In this document: piece after piece, positions 1 to 32,040 of the stretch
Numbering within the stretch: position 1 is the stretch's first letter
Layout: each line of letters begins with the position of its first letter
Virus record (IMG/VR): IMGVR_UViG_2563366875_000004
Coordinates: 1-42,427 of that record
Length of the DNA stretch: 42,427 nucleotides
Direction: 5' to 3' (one strand)
Source: a virus
Taxonomy: Duplodnaviria > Heunggongvirae > Uroviricota > Caudoviricetes
Made by a program: the position numbers and the translations under genes
Notes under the pieces: generated by a model
Told to the model about the DNA's origin: nothing
Seen by the model: the letters and a program-made list of their open reading frames with translations, nothing else
Database searches by the model: none

Positions 1-1020
1 CTACTTACTGACCACAAGCGGCAAATCCAGTGTTGGCGTGATTTTGGTTTTACGATCGTAAATCAACACCTGATTTTCTGTTTTGTGTCCACTGAAAATT
101 TGTTTGTCGCGACTGCTGCCTTCGTAATCTGAAATCCCTTTGGCTTTTATGTCATGGAAGTTGCACCCAAACGGAACGCCGGCTTTTTGCTCGGCTGCAC
201 GTTTAGCCTGATTCCACCAGTTGTTCAGCGTCTTGGCTATTACCTTCCCGCCTTTGGTTGTGTTGATCACATACTCGCATGTGCCGGAAGATACATTTCG
301 GGCTAACTGGATCGCCGTACGTAATCGCGGAGACCATTCCTTGATTTGTTTAGTGCCGGTCTTGTTTTGCTCAATGTAAATCCCTTTATCCATAATATCC
401 TGCCATTTCAGCTCGAGTACATCACCGAGCCTTGCCGCACAAAGATAGGATATCTCCATTGCAATACGTAACTGTGGAATTGCTTCCGCATATATTGCTG
501 CATACTGTTCATCGGTGATGTAAACAGTACGGGCTTTAAGTGTGAATTTTCTGACTCCTTTGCATGGATTATTTTTCACATACCCACGCTCATATCCCCA
601 TCCGTATACACGGCTCAGACTTGCCAGTTCATGGTTTGCCTGGGTCTTGCTCTCAAGTCCTCGCTTATCCATGAAAATTCTTACCTGTTCAATTTTTACA
701 TTATCAGCAAGCACTTTTCCGAATACTGCCAACAATGCCCTTTGATGTTGCCGATAATCTTTTTGGGTTCGGGGGGCCAGTTCTGTAAATGCAGGGGAGT
801 CCATAAACATGTGCCATAATTTAGCTACTGTCATTATGTTGTGGAGTTTTGCTTTTTCCAGCTCATAATTTTGCCAGACTTTAGCTACGCTGGTTTCCCG
901 CACTCTTCCGAGCCCTATAGTTCTTGTGCTTCCTTCGGGTTTCCATACGTAACTGTAACCATTCGATCTAACACGCGGTGGTAGTGCATTATCTTTTTTG
1001 TTTTTTCTTGGTCTTCCCAT
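1..1020 (-). CDS. int: Phage integrase, tyrosine recombinase family (339 aa)
   Basis: Full ORF ending at window edge; lambdoid integrase-like sequence with C-terminal His/Tyr-containing region; overlapped at its 5' end by an excisionase-like ORF as in typical xis-int pairs. Confidence 0.85.
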   Translation of the reverse strand: MGRPRKNKKDNALPPRVRSNGYSYVWKPEGSTRTIGLGRVRETSVAKVWQNYELEKAKLHNIMTVAKLWHMFMDSPAFTELAPRTQKDYRQHQRALLAVFGKVLADNVKIEQVRIFMDKRGLESKTQANHELASLSRVYGWGYERGYVKNNPCKGVRKFTLKARTVYITDEQYAAIYAEAIPQLRIAMEISYLCAARLGDVLELKWQDIMDKGIYIEQNKTGTKQIKEWSPRLRTAIQLARNVSSGTCEYVINTTKGGKVIAKTLNNWWNQAKRAAEQKAGVPFGCNFHDIKAKGISDYEGSSRDKQIFSGHKTENQVLIYDRKTKITPTLDLPLVVSK

Positions 1021-1306: not shown

Positions 1307-3787
1307 TTAAAAATCAACCGGATTCGGGATCAGTTTTTGTATCGTGGCTGTAACGTATTTTGCCTGGTGACGGGCATCATCCAGCGCATTGTGGCGCACG
1401 CCTTCAAATGGAATAACTGTTCTGGCATCAAAGTCGATTGTTTTTCCCAGCTCAACGATTGTGCGTACATCGCGATCGTTGTAGTAGCGCCACGGGCAGG
1501 GGATGTCCAGACGTTCGTATGAGGTGCGCAAAATTGCGTTATCGAAAGTTGCACCATTACCCCATACCTGAACGAATTTTTCATCTGAGTATTCGTTGAT
1601 GAACTCCCGAAACCGCGAAAGGGCATCCTTCAGTTTTACCTGGTCTGTTAAAATGGCAGCTCTGGCTTCACTGGACTGCTTCAGCCACCATTCGATGGTT
1701 CCACCGTCAGGAACAGCCCCTGTATTCATTGCGTCAGTCAGACTGATAACGATATAAAATACTGGCCCGATTTCCCCTGTTTGTGGGTCGAAGAAAACCG
1801 CACCAATAACCACGATGGGCGCATTGGTGTTGGTTCCCATTGTTTCAAGGTCGATCATCAGGTGGTACCACACTCTGCTGGTGGATGTGATAACGTGATG
1901 ACCGTTCACCGCAATTAAGGGATCTGCCGTCCCGCCAGTTTCATTATCGCTGGCGTGGTCCTGAGCGCTGCCAGCATTCTCCTTGTGTGGATGTTCAGCG
2001 CCTTCCATTTCCTCCGGATCATTTTCCTGAACTTCAACCTGATTCTCTTCATCGAATGTTTCCTGGTATGTTGCGTCGCCCATCACCGCGCCACAATCAG
2101 GGCAGTTGCCGCCACCGCTCTGACCGCAGGCGGTGCAGACTTTTTCCGATTCCTGTTGCGCTACTGGCTCAGGTTGTTTCGTTTCTGGCTCGTTTTGTAA
2201 CGCATTTTGGCTGTTTTGTTCCGCTTTCTGGTCGTTCTGTTCCGTTTCTTGCTGGTTCTGGTACACAGAATCGCGGGTTTCAATCCCCTTCACCCATTTC
2301 GGATCATTCGGGTCGCTAATCCCTGCAACAAATTCTCCGCGAGAGGCAGCAAGCAACTTATCGGCGTCAGGCTGGCTGATATTGGCTGCCTGCATAATTT
2401 TGTTTACTTCGTCAGCGGTAACTTTTACCGGCTCTGGTTGTGCGGTCGTGTCAGAGGCACCAGTATTTTGTTGTGAACCTGAGTACGTGCCGTTTTTACG
2501 GGCAAAATATTCTTCTTTCGTGATTTCAGTAGCCCCTGCAGCCAGCGCCTTATTCAGACCAGAAAGTTTGTTTGCACGACCATATTTTTCGCCATCCTTA
2601 TCGGTGAAGAGGAAGTAGAACGGCCCCTCACGCTCTACAGATGGTTCAGTTTCCAGCGCGCTTTCATTTTTTTTGGTATCAGATACTTCAGTTTCCACTG
2701 CATCAGTTTGTGCTGCTGACGGCTGGAGAATATCAGCAGTGTTCTGGTCTGTTTCTTCATCCTCAAACACGCCCTTTGTCGCCAGGTATTCAGTGATGTA
2801 TTTGTTCAGCGCCACGGGATCTTTGTGAATGTCGATCGGACGCTCACGGACAAGGCCAAAAATAGTCTGACGGTCGTAGCGAACGGCATCAGGTTGTTTG
2901 CGCATTGATGCGGAAATACGCTTCCAGTCTTCGCGATCTTTGTCGATAACTTCATTTTTTGCCCAGCGATGGATGCTGCCGTCAATGTTTCCGGCATTAA
3001 TATCGCCAGGCCACAGAGCGTAGGCCAGTTCTTCATCCAGCGTTTTCCATGTCTGCTTGTATTCGCGACGAATGGCGGCAGTGGCGGGGTTGATTTTTCC
3101 TGCTGAGTTTTCAGTGTGCTGCCGGTTGACTCTGGCGCGGGCAAGATCAACAACAGACGTGTATTTCCCGGTTTCTTTGCGTTCGGCTTCGCGACGTTTT
3201 TTCCAGGTGCGTAATTCTGTCTGGATCTCAGGCCATTTTGCGCCCGGCTTACATTTATGTTTAACCCACCCGATGGCGAACAGCTTTAGTTCTGAATACA
3301 TGACGTTAACTTCAGGCATTTTCATCAGTGCCTCAACGATATGCCCGTCGAATGTTGCCATGTCCTCCTGCAACAATTCCTGTGCACTAATCACCATATC
3401 AACGGTGATGTTTTCACATGTACCGAACTTAACCAGGACCGCGTTCTGTACTTCAAGGGACAGCTTGTCAAAATTGACGTTCATCGGATCGGATTCTGGT
3501 TCGACCGGAACAAAGGAAGCGGATTCCTCATCCCAGCGGTTTTCCAGCATATATTCGGTATCCCAGGAGTCGATGGCAGGGCGGGGCATGCCGGGTTTAT
3601 CCTCGCAAACAAGAAATTTATAAGCGCAGTCCTGAGCAGCCGGATATTGCTCCAGGAATTGCCAGGTAAATTTGGCTCGGGCGCGGCGTTCGTCGCCGGC
3701 TTCAATGGCAGTAGCTACAGCGACTGCACCTTCTTCCTTTATTGCCTGTTCGTCCGGAATGGCGGCGCAAATAAAGACTTTACTCAT
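1307..3787 (-). CDS. Large exonuclease-family protein (826 aa): unassigned N-terminal region, acidic/Gln-rich linker, CxxC-x7-CxxC zinc ribbon, C-terminal DnaQ-like DEDDh 3'-5' exonuclease domain
   Basis: Exo motifs visible in translation: MIDLETMG (Exo I), WGNGATFDNAIL (Exo II), HNALDDARHQA (Exo III); zinc ribbon CTACGQSGGGNCPDCG; located next to xis where lambdoid phages carry recombination genes. Confidence 0.75.
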   Translation of the reverse strand: MSKVFICAAIPDEQAIKEEGAVAVATAIEAGDERRARAKFTWQFLEQYPAAQDCAYKFLVCEDKPGMPRPAIDSWDTEYMLENRWDEESASFVPVEPESDPMNVNFDKLSLEVQNAVLVKFGTCENITVDMVISAQELLQEDMATFDGHIVEALMKMPEVNVMYSELKLFAIGWVKHKCKPGAKWPEIQTELRTWKKRREAERKETGKYTSVVDLARARVNRQHTENSAGKINPATAAIRREYKQTWKTLDEELAYALWPGDINAGNIDGSIHRWAKNEVIDKDREDWKRISASMRKQPDAVRYDRQTIFGLVRERPIDIHKDPVALNKYITEYLATKGVFEDEETDQNTADILQPSAAQTDAVETEVSDTKKNESALETEPSVEREGPFYFLFTDKDGEKYGRANKLSGLNKALAAGATEITKEEYFARKNGTYSGSQQNTGASDTTAQPEPVKVTADEVNKIMQAANISQPDADKLLAASRGEFVAGISDPNDPKWVKGIETRDSVYQNQQETEQNDQKAEQNSQNALQNEPETKQPEPVAQQESEKVCTACGQSGGGNCPDCGAVMGDATYQETFDEENQVEVQENDPEEMEGAEHPHKENAGSAQDHASDNETGGTADPLIAVNGHHVITSTSRVWYHLMIDLETMGTNTNAPIVVIGAVFFDPQTGEIGPVFYIVISLTDAMNTGAVPDGGTIEWWLKQSSEARAAILTDQVKLKDALSRFREFINEYSDEKFVQVWGNGATFDNAILRTSYERLDIPCPWRYYNDRDVRTIVELGKTIDFDARTVIPFEGVRHNALDDARHQAKYVTATIQKLIPNPVDF

Positions 3788-5885: not shown

Positions 5886-6344
5886 TTATTGATGTTTGTT
5901 ACGTTTGCGAGCTTCTAGTAGCTCGGTGAATAGGCGATTAAAATTCTCAACGCGGGCACGGAGTTCGCTGATTTGTGCTTGCTGCTCTGATTTTGGAAGT
6001 GCGCGATACAATCGCAACATCTCCAACTCATCTTCCGATAAGTCTAAGGCGCTGTTGAGTGCAACTGGTGGATCTGGTGTTTTATCCTCGTCACCAAACA
6101 GTATCCAAGTTGGTGAACATTGCAATACCTCAGCCAGGCGATGCAAATTTTGCCCGCGCGGGGCTGTATGGTCGCTTTCCCATAGTGAAATTGATGAGCC
6201 AGATACGCCAGCAGCTTTGCTTAAATCGTTTTGACTTAAACCAACCTGTTTGCGTCTTTCTCTAATTCGTTGACCTAAAGTTTTCTCGTTCATATTTAGA
6301 TATCTTAATAACCCTTGACTTGAGATTCCTTGAGTGATTACCAT
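5886..6344 (-). CDS. Prophage repressor, HTH XRE/CI-type, without a LexA-like peptidase domain (152 aa; alternative start at 6293)
   Basis: HTH motif QVGLSQNDLSKAAGVSGSSISLWE; divergent from cro-like gene; C-terminal part is helical and lacks a Ser/Lys autocleavage module. Confidence 0.8.
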   Translation of the reverse strand: MVITQGISSQGLLRYLNMNEKTLGQRIRERRKQVGLSQNDLSKAAGVSGSSISLWESDHTAPRGQNLHRLAEVLQCSPTWILFGDEDKTPDPPVALNSALDLSEDELEMLRLYRALPKSEQQAQISELRARVENFNRLFTELLEARKRNKHQ

Positions 6345-12049: not shown

Positions 12050-12199
12050 TTTTATACCTTTTGTGTTGTGTGAAGGAGCAGTATAGTCAGAAATGAGACA
12101 AGTGAAAGGGGATAGAAAGTAATAGTTTGTTTTTGTAGAATTGCTGCGGGTGCTTGAGGCTATCTGCCTCAGGCATGAACACCAAAAGGCAGATAGAGA

Positions 12200-12303
12200 A
12201 AAGCCCCAGTTAACATTACGCGTCCTGCAAGACGCTTAACATTAATCTGAGGCCATATCTATGCGACACATAGAGATTAGCCTCTTACGGACCGAAAGGT
12301 CAA
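12200..12303 (-). ncRNA. Sok-like antisense RNA with its promoter (approximate bounds)
   Basis: Minus-strand -35 TTGACC (12298-12303) and -10 TAATCT (12274-12279), 18-nt spacer, reading antisense across the mok start; 3' end not defined. Confidence 0.4.
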
Positions 12304-12320
12304 GGAGAAGCAGGCTATGA
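12261..12320 (+). CDS. mok-like upstream leader ORF (19 codons) coupled to hok
   Basis: ATG 12261; stop TGA overlaps the hok ATG (CTATGA). Confidence 0.3.
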   Translation: MRHIEISLLRTERSRRSRL

Positions 12321-14361: not shown

Positions 14362-14820
14362 ATGCGTATAGAGTTTGTTTTGCCTTACCCGCCGACGGTG
14401 AACACCTACTGGCGACGTCGTGGCAGCACATATTTTGTATCAAAAGCCGGTGAGCGTTATCGCCGTGATGTGGCGCTTATTGTTCGCCAGCAGCGACTGA
14501 AATTAAACCTGTCCGGAAGGCTGGCGATAAAGATTATTGCAGAGCCACCGGATAAGCGCCGTCGTGACTTGGACAATATTCTGAAAGCACCACTGGATGC
14601 ACTGACACATGCGGGGTTGCTTATCGACGACGAGCAGTTTGATGAAATCAATATTGTGCGCGGACTGCCTGTTCCTGGTGGTCGGTTGGGTGTGAAGATT
14701 TACGAAATTACAGGTGATAACGATGGCGCGAGATATTCAGCAGGTTATGGAGCGGTGGGGAGCATGGGCTGCAAACAATCACGAAGATGTGTCATGGGCG
14801 TCAATCGCTGCTGGTTTTAA
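14362..14820 (+). CDS. rusA: RusA-family Holliday junction resolvase (with C-terminal extension overlapping Q)
   Basis: N-terminal [19 protein letters not shown] and [26 protein letters not shown] are RusA hallmarks. Confidence 0.8.
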
Positions 14821-15109
14821 AGGATTAATCCCGCCGAAAGTGAAATCACGCCCTCAGTGTTCTGATGATGATGCAATGATAATTTGTGGCTGTATGGCCC
14901 GGTTGAACAAGAAAAATCAGGATTTGCACGATTTGTTGGTGGATTATTACGTAGGTGGAATGACTTTTATGGGGCTGGCACGAAAGCATGGGTGTTCGGA
15001 TACCTGTATTGGCAAGCGCCTGCAGAAAGCGGAAGGGGTTATTGATGGCATGTTGATGATGCTTGATATCCGACTGGAGATGGACCGATACGTAGAACGA
15101 ATTATGTAG
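14723..15109 (+). CDS. Short Q-like late antiterminator (QuuD-like, 128 aa)
   Basis: ATG after AGGTGA; size and position immediately upstream of a pR'-like promoter and terminator. Confidence 0.65.
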
Positions 15110-15113
15110 GCGC

Positions 15114-15143
15114 TTGACCAGACACATTGTCCGGGGCTATATT
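15114..15143 (+). promoter_or_regulatory. pR'-like late promoter (-35 TTGACC, 18-nt spacer, -10 TATATT)
   Basis: Directly after the Q stop; followed about 65 nt later by a terminator, as for lambda pR'/6S RNA/tR'. Confidence 0.4.
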
Positions 15144-15206
15144 TCCGACGCAACCGCAAAATCGGTTGTCGGGATTAGCACCCCGGATGTTTACGGAGCG
15201 ATATGA

Positions 15207-15226
15207 GACGCGCCCGCGTCTTTTTT
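15207..15226 (+). terminator. tR'-like intrinsic terminator
   Basis: GACGC-tetraloop-GCGTC followed by TTTTTT. Confidence 0.5.
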
Positions 15227-15390
15227 CATATCGTTTGCACAGTCACATTCGCGATTAATGGCGGGCTGTGTGGGGGAGCCGAAAGGCTCGCCGGTTTCCG
15301 TACCCGGTAGTGCTAACCCCGCACAGTTCGCCACCACGATGATTAGCACCTGACGGTGGCGATAATGTCCAAATGTACGGAGTTATCGTT

Positions 15391-15954
15391 ATGACCACTC
15401 AGATTTCTGTCGAAACTCTTTCCCCAATTACACACAACCAAATTCCCGTTATCACTACCGAGTTACTGGCACAGCTTTACGGTACAGATTCAGATAACAT
15501 CAAAAAGAATTATTCGCGTAACGCAGATCGTTTTTATGAAGGTAAGCACTTCTACAAAGTGATTGGTGATGAACTAAAGAATTTGCGGGTGACTTTAAGT
15601 CACTCACAAAATCCCATCTCTCCCAAAACCCGCTCGCTCATACTCTGGACAGAACGCGGAGCAGCCCGCCACGCAAAAATGCTGGAAACCGATCAGGCAT
15701 GGGAGGTATTCGAAAAACTGGAAGATTGTTATTTCAGCCGAAAACAACCAGCTGCAGCACAAAACACATCTATCGAAAATGATGGATGCGCATTACTGAT
15801 CCACTTCGATAAACACGGTCAGGTCGACTTCACGGAAAAAGTACCCGCCGATGCGATGGTATGCACTCTGGAACGGTTCAAATTTTATCTGGAACAACGC
15901 GGCTGGATCGTTGCCCGTAAAGAACAACTGGTGGAATGGTTGATGCGGTTTTAG
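15391..15954 (+). CDS. ORF6N/Rha-like DNA-binding domain protein (candidate antirepressor or regulator), 187 aa
   Basis: N-terminal pattern ITTELLAQLYGTDSDNIKKNYSRNADRFYEGKHFYKV plus LILWTERGAARHAKMLETDQAWEVFEKLE resembles ORF6N-type domains as recalled; GGAG RBS. Confidence 0.55.
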   Translation: MTTQISVETLSPITHNQIPVITTELLAQLYGTDSDNIKKNYSRNADRFYEGKHFYKVIGDELKNLRVTLSHSQNPISPKTRSLILWTERGAARHAKMLETDQAWEVFEKLEDCYFSRKQPAAAQNTSIENDGCALLIHFDKHGQVDFTEKVPADAMVCTLERFKFYLEQRGWIVARKEQLVEWLMRF

Positions 15955-15999
15955 GTGCGACAGCCCCACCATCTTTATAGTAGTGGGGCTGAAAGTTCA

Positions 16000-16545
16000 T
16001 TACTGAGTGACTTTTAGCCCACTAAATTTAAAAATATACTCTGGTTCTGTTACTTTTCCATAGAGGGTCATGCTTGATTCAAGGATGCAGTCCTTTGAAT
16101 TAGGGATAAAACGCCCTGAAAATGAAACTATATCACCAGGTTTTAATTCAGAGGCCACCGTGAAAATTTCAGAGTCAGGGCTGATAAGAGTATGATGACG
16201 AGAATCGGAAAATGCGTTATTCCAGGTTTTAACTTCAATGTCTGGTGCTATCTCCAAAGCCAACACGCCGTAACCATCACTATTGGCAGAAACAGTTTTT
16301 ACAGTACCAATCCAGTTTTTAACTTTTTTATCTTTTCTTAAGGTTGCGCAAACCGCTTTGTCTCGTTTTGCTTTTATTCCGCCCAGCTTCATGTCGTTAT
16401 CAACACCTTTAGCTGATGAAATTGCGTTTGAGACCGCCTCGATGAACTTTTCCTGCTGCTCAGGCATCTGGTAAGCAAAGGCTGGTGTCTGAAATATGGT
16501 AACCGAAAACGCTATGGTCATGATTTTTGTAAAAACACTATTCAT
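16000..16545 (-). CDS. Secreted (Sec signal peptide) protein of unknown function, 181 aa; AT-rich cargo gene
   Basis: Signal peptide MNSVFTKIMTIAFSVTIFQTPAFA with AFA cleavage motif; opposite strand to the late operon; lower GC than neighbours. Confidence 0.65.
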   Translation of the reverse strand: MNSVFTKIMTIAFSVTIFQTPAFAYQMPEQQEKFIEAVSNAISSAKGVDNDMKLGGIKAKRDKAVCATLRKDKKVKNWIGTVKTVSANSDGYGVLALEIAPDIEVKTWNNAFSDSRHHTLISPDSEIFTVASELKPGDIVSFSGRFIPNSKDCILESSMTLYGKVTEPEYIFKFSGLKVTQ

Positions 16546-16737
16546 ATTTTTCCCTAAAACAAGAAATAATGAAACAAAGAGCGCTCAAATATAAGCTTGC
16601 TTAGATTACCCATCCCTTAAACCCTTATCAACAGTATGTATTTGGGTTGTATTGTTCATCATGTGTGTTTAGGGCTTTACGATCGTAAAAAGTTGAATAT
16701 CCTGTTAAGAGTTGTTACTTCGCCACACAGCTTAAAC

Positions 16738-16759
16738 CCGCCGCCAGGCGGTTTTTTTT
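16738..16759 (+). terminator. Intrinsic terminator
   Basis: CCGCC-GCCA-GGCGG followed by T8. Confidence 0.55.
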
Positions 16760-16956
16760 GTGTCCGGAAAGTGGTGCAGTACGTTAAATGCGCATGTTGT
16801 TTTTTCTAAAATTCAGAAATAATAAAAACACATGCATATATTTACGAATATTGACATAATTTTCTATTGAAAAAAGAGCCGGCATTATTAATATCCATCT
16901 TCGGTTCCGAAGGGGATGTAAAGCGCGGTCATTTTTATTTCTCTTGAGGAACCAAT

Positions 16957-17032
<76 letters not shown>

Positions 17033-17035
17033 TAT

Positions 17036-17110
<75 letters not shown>

Positions 17111-17379
17111 GCAGAGGACGATAGATACTAGGTTGTGTTAGGCACTGACACATTTTATGTGGGGCGTTTTTCCTGACTCCTTACCTCGCCCTGTACTGTA
17201 ATGAGTGATATCGGTTGCAGCACCAGTGCCGTTTTTTACGCCACCGGAATGGTGCATTATTGGTAGAGATTTGCAATGTCTCTGGCAGGGGCCGGTGATG
17301 CATCATTCTGGTGTTGTAAATAACACCATGACATTGAGATTAATCATATATTAAGCAAAACCTGGAAACACATCCTTAA

Positions 17380-17404
17380 CCGCCTCCACCAGGCGGTTTT
17401 TTTT
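17380..17404 (+). terminator. Intrinsic terminator downstream of the tRNA pair
   Basis: CCGCCT-CCACC-AGGCGG followed by T8. Confidence 0.6.
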
Positions 17405-17731
17405 ATTCTTAATTCGAAAAAAAGAAAACACGGACACTGATAATGTCCGTGCGGCAATGCCATGTAAGTCAGCGATGAATATGGCGCAAAAAAGCGCGGC
17501 TATCGGATTAACGCCGCGGGACAAAGTCCGTGAAGAAGAATAAGTATCGATCTCCTTCCGGAGACGAGTTGATATTACTAAGCTTTAAAAATGGTTTAAA
17601 TCCTCAGATTGACCTTAATTTCCGGTAAGTCTTATTTCATTTTCTCCGCGCTACCTCCGGCGCACATCACATCAGATAACACCACACAAAAGGCATCTGC
17701 AGGTGCCTTTGACGGGGTGTTGTTTTTTTAC

Positions 17732-17772: not shown

Positions 17773-18165
17773 ATGTCTGAACCCTTATCCGGTTCCGGCA
17801 CGGCTGCGGCGCTCGGCGGGGCGACGGTATTCGGGCTGTTTACCGGAACGGATTTCGGGATTGTGTTTGGTGCGTTCGCCGGGGCGTTATTTGTGGCAAC
17901 AATTCCGCAGGCGCTTTCAGCCTGGCGTGTGGCAGCGCATTTTCTGGTGTCGTTCATTATCGGCGTGCTGGGCGCAGAGGTTCTGGCATCCTGGCTGGTA
18001 AAGCATACAGAGTTTGATGGTGCACCTGTTGACGCATTGTGTGCAGTGCTGGTGTCTGTATTGTCGGTAAAAGTGCTGTCCTTTGTGCACAGGCAGGACG
18101 TTATATCACTGATGTCCTGTCTGCTCTCCCGCCTGAAGAGTGGAGGAGGCGACAATGTTAAGTAA
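17773..18165 (+). CDS. Holin-like membrane protein (130 aa)
   Basis: AGGAGAAAAAAGT RBS; multiple Gly/Ala-rich transmembrane segments; first gene of the lysis cassette. Confidence 0.6.
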   Translation: MSEPLSGSGTAAALGGATVFGLFTGTDFGIVFGAFAGALFVATIPQALSAWRVAAHFLVSFIIGVLGAEVLASWLVKHTEFDGAPVDALCAVLVSVLSVKVLSFVHRQDVISLMSCLLSRLKSGGGDNVK

Positions 18166-18430
18166 CCTTCCCGGATTGCTGAATGTGGCGTTATGCACGG
18201 TTATCGTGCTGACGCTCTTTTTTTATCGTCGCCGTGATTCCAGACATAAACCGCTGATGTCATGGCTGGCCTGGCTGCTGATGCTGCTGTATGCCTTTGC
18301 GCCCCTCAGCTATCTGTGTGGTCGCCCGTTAGCAACGGGCTGGCTGGAAGTGTTTTTTAATCTGTTGTTCTGCGTGCTGGTAATACGCGCACGCGGGAAC
18401 GTCGCAAGAATCTTTCCATTGTTGAGGTGA
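18155..18430 (+). CDS. Second lysis-cassette membrane protein (about 92 aa)
   Basis: ATG after GGAGGAGG; hydrophobic segments LLNVALCTVIVLTLFFY and LAWLLMLLYAFAPL. Confidence 0.5.
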   Translation: MLSNLPGLLNVALCTVIVLTLFFYRRRDSRHKPLMSWLAWLLMLLYAFAPLSYLCGRPLATGWLEVFFNLLFCVLVIRARGNVARIFPLLR

Positions 18431-18810
18431 ATATGTCGGGTAAATTCAGATTCAGCCGTCGCAGTGAAAAAAATCTGGAGGGCGTCAAACCACAGCTGGC
18501 TGCTGTCGTTCGCCGTGCCCTTGAGCTGACGGAGGTTGATTTCGGTATTACGGAAGGCCTGCGCAGTAAGTATCGCCAGAAACAGCTGGTCGCGGAAGGG
18601 AAAAGCCAGACTATGAACAGCCGCCACCTGACCGGTGATGCGGTGGATGTTGTGGCCTACATTGGCAGCCAGGTGTCATGGGACTGGCCTCTGTACGAGA
18701 AAATCGCGCAGGCATTTAAGCAGGCTGCCGCAGAGCTGGGAACTGCCATCGAATGGGGCGGGGACTGGAAAACACTGAAAGACGGGCCTCACTTTCAGTT
18801 GAAACGCTGA
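18427..18810 (+). CDS. Endolysin, peptidase M15 (VanY-like) family
   Basis: Motifs SRHLTGDAVD and WGGDW...GPHF typical of M15 zinc peptidase endolysins; ATG at 18427 or 18433. Confidence 0.75.
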   Translation: MNMSGKFRFSRRSEKNLEGVKPQLAAVVRRALELTEVDFGITEGLRSKYRQKQLVAEGKSQTMNSRHLTGDAVDVVAYIGSQVSWDWPLYEKIAQAFKQAAAELGTAIEWGGDWKTLKDGPHFQLKR

Positions 18811-30098: not shown

Positions 30099-32040
30099 CA
30101 GTTTTCAGCTGAAGGCGATCATCACTGCCGTGGATAAGGTATCGGCACCGCTGAAGGGAATGCAGCGCCAGCTGAAAGGTTTTAAAAAGGAGTTTGCCAG
30201 CCTGTCACTGGGCGCAGCGGGTGCCGGAACCGCAGTACTGGGGGCGCTGGCGCTCCCGGTCAAATCTGCCATTGCCCTTGAATCAAAAATGGCGGATGTC
30301 CGGAAAGTGGTGGATGGTCTGGATACGCCGGAAGCGTTTAAGGCAATGACGGAACAGGTGCGCGACCTGTCAACAGAACTGCCCATGTCGGCGGAAGGTA
30401 TCGCCGAAATCGTGGCGGCGGGTGGTCAGGCTGGCATCGCCCGTGACGAGCTGATGCAGTTTACTGACGACGCCGTGAAGATGGGGGGGGCCTTTGACAC
30501 CACGGCGGAAGAATCCGGTCAGATGATGGCACAGTGGCGCACTGCCTTTAAACTGACACAGGGAGAGGTGGCAGGACTTGCGGACAAGATTAACTATCTT
30601 GGTAATACCGGTCCTGCGAGTGCGAAAAAGATTTCTGATGTTGTGACCCGTATTGGCCCTTTAGGCAGTGTTGCGGGTGTGGCCTCCGGAGAGATTGCCG
30701 CAATGGGGGCAACCATTGCCGGAATGGGGGTGGAATCAGAAATTGCTGCGACGGGGATAAAGAATTTTATGCTGTCGCTGACTGCGGGGAATTCTGCCAC
30801 CAAATCGCAGAAAAAAGCGCTTCGCCTGTTGCGCATTGACCCGAAAAAACTGGCGGCGGATATGCAGAAAGACGCCCGTGGGGCCATGCTGCACGTACTG
30901 GATTCTCTGGCGAAAGTGCCGAAAGAAAAACAGGCTGCTGTGCTTAATGCGCTGTTCGGGAAGGAGTCTCTGGGAGCCATTGCGCCGCTGCTCACGAATC
31001 TGGATTTGTTGCGAACCAATTTTAATCGTGTGGCGGATGCGCAGCAGTATGGCGGCTCAATGCAGAAAGAATATGCCGCCCGTGCCGCGACGACGGAAAA
31101 TCAGTTGTTGCTGCTGCAGAACCAGATCAATGCGATTTCTTCCACGTTGGGGGAAACCTTCCTGCCTTCAATCAATGAAGGCATAAAAGAGATGAAGCCT
31201 TTTCTGGAAGAAGTGCGCACGTTTGTCAGAGAAAATCCTGAGGTCGTAAAAACCATCGCGAAAACGGGGCTGGCACTGCTGACATTTGGTGTTGCCATTG
31301 GCTCGCTGTCGCGGATGGGAAAAATCCTTAGTGGCGTGATGAATATGACACCGGCAAAGGGACTCATTACGTTACTGGTAGCGGGGGCGTATCTCATTAT
31401 TGACAACTGGGAAACGGTCGGGCCGGTTGTGAAAAAAGTCTGGCAGGAGGTTGATCAGGTTGTCAGGGCTATGGGGGGATGGGAACAGGCAGTAAAAACA
31501 ATTGCAACGGTTTCTGCCCTGTATATTGGTGTGAAAGCGGTGGCAGCCATTCGTGCAGCAACAGTCGCCCAGAATCAATGGACAACGGCGGCAGGAAAAA
31601 CAGCGCTGAAATTAAAGGGGCTCGGAAAGATCAGCCTCATTGGGGGATTGCTTGAGCTGGGCATGATGGCGCAGGAGTTTGAAAAAGAACATCCCTGGCT
31701 TGTTAAAAATTTTGTGGCTGATGCACTGAACAGTGGATTTGGTCTGAATGATAAGTTCGACGAGTGGGGCAAACAGTTCCATGATTTTGTCTATGACATG
31801 ACCGGATGGCAGATGCCACGTGGTGATGGGTATTTATCTCCCGATAAACGCTACACCCCGAATGTATCACTGGAAAGGAATCAGCTGTTAAGCCTTTCAT
31901 CTTCACCGGCAACCCGCAGCGAACTTAAGGTGACGTTTGACAACGCGCCGCCGGGAATGCGTGTCATCGATTTGCCGAAAACAGGCGATCCCTTTATGAA
32001 AATCACCCATGACGTTGGGTATTCACCTTTCAGGCGTTAA
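30091..32040 (+). CDS. Tail tape measure protein
   Basis: 649 aa, Ala/Gly-rich helical protein with hydrophobic segment; GAGGAG RBS. Confidence 0.8.
   Translation: MADSFQLKAIITAVDKVSAPLKGMQRQLKGFKKEFASLSLGAAGAGTAVLGALALPVKSAIALESKMADVRKVVDGLDTPEAFKAMTEQVRDLSTELPMSAEGIAEIVAAGGQAGIARDELMQFTDDAVKMGGAFDTTAEESGQMMAQWRTAFKLTQGEVAGLADKINYLGNTGPASAKKISDVVTRIGPLGSVAGVASGEIAAMGATIAGMGVESEIAATGIKNFMLSLTAGNSATKSQKKALRLLRIDPKKLAADMQKDARGAMLHVLDSLAKVPKEKQAAVLNALFGKESLGAIAPLLTNLDLLRTNFNRVADAQQYGGSMQKEYAARAATTENQLLLLQNQINAISSTLGETFLPSINEGIKEMKPFLEEVRTFVRENPEVVKTIAKTGLALLTFGVAIGSLSRMGKILSGVMNMTPAKGLITLLVAGAYLIIDNWETVGPVVKKVWQEVDQVVRAMGGWEQAVKTIATVSALYIGVKAVAAIRAATVAQNQWTTAAGKTALKLKGLGKISLIGGLLELGMMAQEFEKEHPWLVKNFVADALNSGFGLNDKFDEWGKQFHDFVYDMTGWQMPRGDGYLSPDKRYTPNVSLERNQLLSLSSSPATRSELKVTFDNAPPGMRVIDLPKTGDPFMKITHDVGYSPFRR

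Follow-up and report, generated by a model that had tools for sequence, protein, structure and literature searches.

A predicted exported OB-fold protein encoded antisense to the late genes of an Escherichia prophage and belonging to a large family without a name in the databases

Accessory genes of prophages with a function in the cell envelope determine by which phages a lysogen can be superinfected and how far it resists host defences. The locus studied here raises the question of which such role, if any, is played by a small gene lying in reverse orientation among the late genes of a prophage. The window, i.e. the whole stretch of DNA analysed, has a length of 42,427 nt (IMG/VR record IMGVR_UViG_2563366875_000004) and represents a prophage with an integrase gene (1-1020, minus strand), a gene for a CI-type repressor (5886-6344, minus strand), replication genes, DUF968 and RusA genes, and a gene for a Q antiterminator (14714-15109, plus strand). 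Its lysis genes comprise holins (17773-18430) and an M15 endolysin (18427-18810), and its structural genes encode terminase, portal, capsid, and a contractile tail with a Mu-like tape measure, a DNA-circulation protein, and a baseplate. The host of the gene is a lambdoid-regulated, Mu-like-tailed Escherichia prophage. Q, lysis, and structural genes are all located on the plus strand, and the gene in question is antisense to them and adjoins the lysis cassette.

A sequence-only reading of this DNA had proposed a reverse-oriented gene for a secreted protein of 181 amino acids with a possible role in conversion, exclusion, or virulence in the periplasm. The following features were assigned to the gene itself:

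16000..16545, minus strand: coding sequence, stop codon included (ORF list, dN/dS against the Salmonella copy, homologues)
16551..16555, minus strand: Shine-Dalgarno sequence AGGGA, 5 nt before the ATG (sequence; partly kept in the Salmonella copy)
16474..16545, minus strand: Sec-type signal peptide, codons 1-24, with a predicted cut after A-F-A (A24/Y25) (inspection, hydropathy)
16342..16461, minus strand: predicted two-helix hairpin, codons 29-68 (helices 29-45 and 51-68), with conserved N50, M52, G55, R61, and C66 (AlphaFold model, conservation)
16009..16326, minus strand: predicted OB-fold barrel, codons 74-179 (AlphaFold model, conservation)

The proposed gene coincides exactly with an open reading frame of 181 codons in the ORF list, running from an ATG at 16545 to a TAA at 16000-16002. 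It is under purifying selection: in comparison with a 91% identical copy from Salmonella prophages, the nucleotide difference is 9.3% and dN and dS amount to 0.046 and 0.337, respectively, corresponding to a dN/dS of 0.137. Because of this ratio, of the 2,931 clusters of homologues described below, and of a confidently predicted fold, the frame is regarded as a gene and not as a chance ORF.

The base composition of the gene deviates from its surroundings, with a GC content of 39.7% and a GC3 of 36.8% compared to 50.5% GC for the whole window and 45-56% GC (GC3 0.46-0.62) for the flanking and late genes; the spacer of 410 bases upstream of the gene has a GC content of 36%. The sequence-only reading had used the low GC content as an argument for expression of the gene from the prophage. 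The observation itself stands, but the argument is weakened, since the deficit is found throughout the family: out of 133 loci, the GC content of the DNA coding for the domain is below that of the 3-kb flanks in 101 and above it in a single one (mean difference -7.3 points), chromosomal and phage copies being alike in this respect. The low GC content is therefore partly a family trait, which reflects either frequent horizontal transfer or a constraint on the composition of the family.

The surroundings of the gene contain the following elements:

15114..15954, plus strand: module following Q and convergent with the gene (sequence scans), made up of the next four elements
15114-15143, plus strand: promoter-like site after Q
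15150-15226, plus strand: isrK RNA, with a terminator at 15205-15222
15254-15338, plus strand: C4-type antisense RNA
15373-15954, plus strand: ORF6N antirepressor-like gene
15961..15991, no strand assigned: strong hairpin separating the antirepressor gene from the convergent gene under study (fold computation)
16603..16631, minus strand: candidate promoter of the gene, TTGATA-17 nt-TAATCT, 8 of 12 matches (sequence; below the threshold of the promoter scan)
16738..16759, plus strand: intrinsic terminator beyond the upstream region of the gene (stem 16738-16751 and T run)
16957..17110, plus strand: tRNA-Thr(TGT) and tRNA-Gly(TCC), beyond the upstream region and the terminator

The order antQ-isrK-orf45-anrP has been studied in the Salmonella prophage Gifsy-1 (PMC4825925), and the module following Q in the window matches this layout, although it belongs to a Mu-like-tailed prophage of Escherichia. 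Its ORF6N protein matches the PADLOC candidate family PDC-S05 (E 2.7e-8). The hairpin separating the two convergent genes has a folding energy of -21 kcal/mol (z -4.2) on the minus strand and of -18.6 kcal/mol (z -2.8) on the plus strand and lacks a U run on either; it possibly forms the 3′ end of both convergent transcripts.

Since the gene is located on the minus strand and the late genes on the plus strand, late transcription modified by Q would run antisense through it. The opposition to late transcription seen in the sequence-only reading applies to the window, where Q, lysis, and structural genes share the plus strand, but as an argument it is weakened by homologues in other phages, which lie on the strand of the tail genes with tiny gaps. 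Expression of the gene in the lysogen is plausible from the sequence: the hexamers TTGATA and TAATCT of the candidate promoter are sigma-70-like, albeit weak, and identical in the Salmonella prophage copy. In the promoter scan of the window, none was found for the gene that reached the threshold.

The block common to the window and the Salmonella prophages stops at 16742, right at the plus-strand terminator, the stem of which is kept in the Salmonella prophages despite base changes. By stopping the antirepressor transcript, this terminator may keep read-through out of the region with the tRNA and lysis genes. The tRNA pair has 98% identity to its counterpart in Escherichia phage vB_EcoM-606R7 although the flanking DNA differs, which suggests a module exchanged on its own. 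Between the tRNAs and the holin gene, about 560 bases (17111-17675) contain no ORF of more than 57 aa and harbor terminator-like hairpins on both strands (17134-17152, 17378-17398, and 17452-17428). In three closely related loci (L001, L003, and L007), a TerB-like gene and a DUF3927 gene are inserted between the positions corresponding to 17669 and 17676 of the window.

Judged by inspection of the sequence and by hydropathy, the N-terminus of the protein (MNSVFTKIMTIAFSVTIFQTPAFA/YQ) shows the n-h-c pattern of a Sec signal peptide, composed of a basic n-region, an 11-residue hydrophobic core with a Kyte-Doolittle value of 2.25, and an A-x-A site. The signal peptide already noticed in the sequence-only reading is thereby corroborated, and a reading as lipoprotein was rejected as there is no lipobox Cys. 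Export of the product by the Sec pathway is strongly supported, the 24-residue signal peptide is probably removed, and the predicted mature protein comprises 157 residues (17.3 kDa, pI 7.9). Its cysteines are confined to positions 66 and 153 and probably form a disulfide bond, going by the sequence.

The structure was modelled by AlphaFold2 on an alignment of 23 sequences, resulting in a pLDDT of 89.6 and a pTM of 0.80, with a disordered N-terminus (pLDDT of about 50 at residues 1-20). The model strongly supports a mature protein that would be soluble in the periplasm and in which the two-helix hairpin is packed on an OB-fold barrel. The predicted elements of the latter are β1 (74-87), β2 (93-100), β3 (103-106), an α-helix (126-132), β4 (139-146), and β5 (169-179), i.e. 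the five strands in the order β1-β2-β3-α-β4-β5 by which an OB fold is recognized. Invariant residues of the barrel are W78, G80, K106-T-W-N-N110, S113-D114, T119, S143-G144, E156, S158, and P168, and C153 is near-invariant. An outer-membrane β-barrel of the Lom/Ail/OmpX type would call for at least eight amphipathic strands and a terminal aromatic residue, the lack of which had been held against it from the start. It was rejected: the protein ends in the non-aromatic ...LKVTQ, and the model consists of a helical hairpin and a five-stranded OB barrel.

The usual ligand face of OB folds is formed by the β1-β2 loop, the end of β3, and the β4-β5 loop. Read from the OB topology and not from the coordinates of the model, the conserved polar positions of the protein would map to precisely these parts. 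We infer that N50, R61, N88, D90, K-T-W-N-N 106-110, S-D 113-114, E156, and S158 constitute a putative site binding a conserved envelope ligand.

The distribution of this domain goes far beyond phages. A word-indexed search with the protein returned 23 proteins, and an exhaustive profile search yielded 2,931 clusters (at 50% identity) with E<=1e-3 and 1,353 with E<=1e-30. Counting one genome per species, the family occurs in 105 species; its hosts include Alpha-, Beta-, and Gammaproteobacteria, Acidobacteria, Bacteroidales, Ignavibacteriota, and Nitrospinales as well as Actinobacteria (Knoellia, Arthrobacter, Planktophila, and a MAG of the Bifidobacteriaceae). Over 100 diverse members, invariant or nearly invariant positions are N50, M52, G55, R61, C66, W78, G80, N88, D90, G91, and G93 in the first half and T107, W108, N109, N110, S113, D114, T119, S143, G144, C153, E156, S158, and P168 in the second half. 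All of these residues are intact in the protein studied here.

A hydrophobic segment for export or anchoring precedes the domain in 157 of 164 representatives, a tally that takes in those having sequence before the domain. Many members carry a cytoplasmic zinc ribbon and a transmembrane helix. Longer architectures consist of zinc ribbon, transmembrane helix, domain, and LprI, of zinc ribbon, transmembrane helix, domain, TPR, and TonB_C, or of GYF_2 with zinc ribbon, transmembrane helix, and two copies of the domain. Rare fusions involve SPOR, Ivy, and DUF4431, while LprI is fused to a domain of this type in 11 of 100 relatives. These architectures and the N-terminal hydrophobic segments argue for an extracytoplasmic location of the domain throughout the family. 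By sequence, the protein is thus a member of a large family without a name, the domains of which are extracytoplasmic and which is not specific to phages.

Scans of the protein and its phage-borne homologues against Pfam, NCBIfam, PHROGs, and PADLOC gave no usable match, and none to a structural or housekeeping family. For the protein itself, there was no Pfam match at E<=1 and no match to a PADLOC defence family, and its best PHROGs match reached E 0.016 only, to a family without a named function; five homologues had no PHROGs match. A profile search of PDB sequences returned noise only, and a literature search by accession and keyword found no paper on the family. The gene provides access to a family which is named in no database, comprises about 2,900 clusters, and combines a confident fold with a sharply conserved putative site.

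Close copies of the gene show how it is distributed among related elements. The exact protein is present in Escherichia draft assemblies, always in the order Q, ORF6N, the gene on the opposite strand, and holins, and the 91% variant occupies the same place in prophages of Salmonella enterica. Among the complete E. coli genomes of RefSeq, 5,426 in number, none has the gene, so that a core or common prophage gene of E. coli was rejected. Phage vB_Apl-pPE4 is 87-95% identical on either side but carries other genes in place of window positions 15744-17675, and in phage vB_EcoM-606R7 the Q gene is followed straight by the near-identical tRNAs, without ORF6N or the gene in between. The gene therefore varies in presence among collinear phages, as is typical of morons. 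It also has the deviant base composition of morons, with the caveat that a GC content below that of the flanks is family-wide. Taken together, its status as a mobile phage accessory gene (‘moron’) is strongly supported.

The closest relatives of the protein (49-55% identity) are phage-borne. Most members of the family are chromosomal and occur in free-living and host-associated bacteria; the copies of Gilliamella, Polynucleobacter, and Polaromonas, for example, are chromosomal and stand alone, two of them adjoining genes for TPR proteins. Across 80 species, the gene has no conserved neighbour. The commonest neighbouring cluster, found just downstream in 8 of 80 loci, encodes a protein of about 109 aa with two transmembrane segments and without Pfam match. 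In these loci (L038, L040, L053, L075, L076, L077, L079, and L084), which belong to very different phyla, the neighbour has a length of about 96-110 aa and follows in the same orientation at a distance of about 10-40 nt; some members of the family may have it as a partner.

In phage genomes, on the other hand, the placement of the gene is non-random. Homologues occupy five or more different insertion sites in contractile-tailed phages, beside genes for tape measure, spike, hub, baseplate, or fibre. In ten loci, the homologue lies between the tape measure and the DNA-circulation protein, within a tail module of the same type as that of the window (sheath about 64-67% identical). Four or five loci show an SLT-bearing tape measure, several genes, the homologue, and a sheath initiator in this order, and another four or five a baseplate J gene, a gene of 234 aa, the homologue fused to an LprI-type domain, and a gp53-like fibre gene. 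In a Rosenbergiella prophage, the homologue is found after hub and spike with Apex motif and before the sheath initiator, and the Serratia homologue adjoins a Phage_base_V spike gene. The homologue of Komagataeibacter phage phiKM1 is located between head-tail genes and the tail sheath gene, on the opposite strand, next to a KilA-N gene and a transposase gene. The homologues in tail modules share the orientation of the tail genes in at least 20 loci of viruses or prophages, separated from them by -1 to 70 nt, and they still code for a signal peptide or anchor. The tail module of the window itself has no such insertion: its tape measure gene, with its end at 32040, is followed by the next gene from 32056 on. 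That the same phage lineage carries the gene at alternative places is again moron behaviour.

Among characterized proteins, several are comparable in kind. The BOF family (YgiW/VisP and YdeI/OmdA) likewise consists of periplasmic OB-fold proteins, and one source labels a homologue of the protein as ‘YdeI (BOF family)’. Membership in this family (PF04076) was rejected, as Pfam gave no match at E<=1 and an hhalign comparison of E. coli YgiW with the alignment of the protein and its homologues a probability of 0.3%. In contrast to BOF proteins, the protein has an additional N-terminal two-helix hairpin, a conserved pair of cysteines, and an invariant motif of its own (KTWNN..SD / E.S). Ivy, MliC/PliC, LprI, and the OB-fold potempins A and D of Tannerella are periplasmic protein inhibitors of wall-degrading or proteolytic enzymes; the protein would act as a binder in the manner of the potempins but matches none of these families in sequence. 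Membership in Ivy (PF08816), MliC/PliC (PF09864), and LprI (PF07007) was rejected for want of a profile match, LprI and Ivy being present only as separate domains fused to the domain in some relatives, and the structural scores are those of any OB fold. The best match in a library of viral structures was a ‘tRNA_anti-like’ protein (Foldseek E 1.2e-3, TM 0.34). Proteins of this group (PF12869) are also OB folds behind an N-terminal anchor, but there was no Pfam match at E<=1 and the TM-score is low.

The LprI fusions were followed with the N-domain of a Citrobacter fusion, which retrieved further secreted proteins where this N-domain is joined to either of two other C-domains without known family; none of these C-domains was recognizable as a lysozyme inhibitor, and LprI is a weak lead to the function of the protein. 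Secreted proteins of the Enterobacterales Cedecea, Kluyvera, Salmonella houtenae, and Citrobacter have this LprI-type N-domain, which matches phrog_33858, in common. In these proteins (P0182-P0196; L130 5001-5918), a low-complexity linker connects it to small C-domains of at least three kinds, including the OB domain described here; none of them is in Pfam.

The envelope morons lambda Bor and Lom, phi80 and N15 Cor, T5 Llp, HK97 gp15, T4 Sp and Imm, and P1 Sim resemble the gene in their exported accessory products, deviant composition, and variable presence. In the case of cor, llp, lom, and HK97 gene 15, the step that is blocked is that of tail genes located close by, and the homologues likewise adjoin genes for the tail tip or receptor binding. 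The protein differs from these in that PHROGs and PADLOC reveal no homology, that it is no lipoprotein, membrane, or outer-membrane protein, and that its family is mostly chromosomal.

A role in periplasmic conversion, exclusion, or virulence, as originally suggested, is plausible from the sequence. Our leading but tentative reading, to which we assign a probability of about 0.3, is superinfection exclusion that takes effect when the tail tip passes through the periplasm and is exerted by occupying an envelope ligand. In the lysogen, the protein would be made from its own weak promoter, and after induction the convergent late transcription would silence the gene. The ligand of the conserved site would most plausibly be a cell-wall glycan or a component acting on it. 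With this ligand occupied, the envelope would become refractory to the tip of a contractile tail (tape measure, spike, tail lysin) crossing the periplasm. The outcome would be superinfection exclusion as known from T4 Spackle, phi80 Cor, and T5 Llp, possibly with a side benefit against lysozyme-type enzymes.

Several lines of evidence bear on this reading. The invariance of polar and aromatic residues from Actinobacteria to Proteobacteria and the low dN/dS point to a common envelope ligand and not to a fast-evolving phage protein. A cell-wall glycan or its enzyme is the most economical ligand in view of the Trp, Asn, Asp, Glu, and Arg residues that make up the putative site and of the fusions to LprI, Ivy, SPOR, and TonB_C. 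Exclusion is favoured by the repeated capture beside genes for tape measure, spike, and baseplate, which mirrors that of cor, llp, lom, and HK97 gene 15. Against it stands that the protein has no homology to any characterized exclusion protein, lysozyme inhibitor, or defence protein. Tail modules are, moreover, also simply permissive sites for morons, and no more than about 5-7 of the insertions are independent events. The ancestral role of the family was not directed against phages, as most members are chromosomal without conserved neighbour, and homologues that are co-oriented with the late genes may act in lytic growth rather than in lysogens. It is a doubtful extension that a phage-borne member of this phylum-spanning family of extracytoplasmic OB-fold domains, with a pocket for cell-wall glycan or a wall-cleaving enzyme and repeatedly captured by temperate contractile-tailed phages beside their tape-measure and spike genes, would block the penetration of rival phages in the periplasm and so represent a new, widespread class of Spackle-like exclusion or wall shielding.

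The same evidence can be read in other ways. The family being mostly chromosomal, stand-alone, and present in free-living as well as host-associated bacteria would suit a general envelope-tolerance or fitness factor of the lysogen, a periplasmic OB binder in the manner of BOF or Ivy/MliC that is not aimed at phages and would raise tolerance to lysozyme, antimicrobial peptides, wall-degrading type VI effectors, or other envelope stress. Proteins of the VisP/YdeI type have roles in tolerance to envelope stress, and the BOF label of one homologue as well as the fusions to LprI, Ivy, SPOR, and TonB_C point in this direction. The absence of a sequence relation to BOF and of Ivy, MliC, or LprI matches speaks against such a factor, and it leaves the repeated placement beside tail-tip genes unexplained; we regard it as a possibility to be taken seriously, although not as a probable one. 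The cargo view, according to which the gene hitch-hikes without measurable effect in this host and is kept by recent transfer, draws on its rarity (draft assemblies only, none of the complete E. coli genomes), its foreign base composition, and the visibility of a weak promoter only. This is made unlikely by the purifying selection that has acted while the copies of Escherichia and Salmonella diverged by roughly 9% of their nucleotides, by the conservation of the upstream region, and by the intact family-invariant residues.

Where homologues follow tail genes so closely on the same strand that co-transcription seems apparent, a function in lytic growth suggests itself: protection of the infected cell or its debris from adsorption or injection of progeny, similar to T5 Llp, or modulation of the wall before lysis. 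The vicinity of the gene to the lysis cassette fits this idea as well. In the window, in Salmonella, and in phiKM1, by contrast, the gene is antisense to the late operon and late transcription would oppose it; chromosomal members lack a phage partner, and the protein is outside the known holin, endolysin, and spanin families. Such a lytic function is therefore improbable for the protein. Its membership in the lysis cassette was rejected on account of the wrong strand and of homologues located away from lysis genes elsewhere. Homologues flanked by tape-measure and DNA-circulation genes, by spike and sheath-initiator genes, or by baseplate J and fibre genes could also indicate a component of the virion or of tail assembly. 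We consider this hardly credible, given the signal peptides or membrane anchors of all copies, the conserved cysteine pair suited to an oxidising compartment, the tail module of the window that is complete without the protein, the mostly chromosomal occurrence in many phyla, and the lack of such a family in PHROGs.

If superinfection exclusion by a block of the tail tip, or a shield of the wall, holds true, a new and very widespread mechanism would join the short list of periplasmic exclusion systems, and a recurrent gene of tail modules without named function would be explained. If not, the protein is one more conserved exported protein without known function.

The prophage contains further elements worth mentioning. 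Phage vB_Apl-pPE4 (L122, PP818812.1, ‘Actinobacillus phage vB_Apl-pPE4’), which is labelled as a phage of A. pleuropneumoniae, shows 87-95% DNA identity to the isrK/antirepressor region after Q and to the lysis region of the window, and its host label looks doubtful because of this similarity to an Escherichia prophage. In the early-left region, a gene on the minus strand (1307-3787) encodes a protein of 826 aa, the first 640 or so residues of which are without Pfam match and the C-terminus of which is an Rv2179c-like 3′-5′ exoribonuclease domain (E 5.7e-68). In the early-right region, Rfam identifies a sok antitoxin RNA at 12148-12319 on the plus strand (108 bits), and related loci have a Hok/Gef gene at the corresponding place; the prophage thus harbors a toxin-antitoxin system of the hok/sok type.
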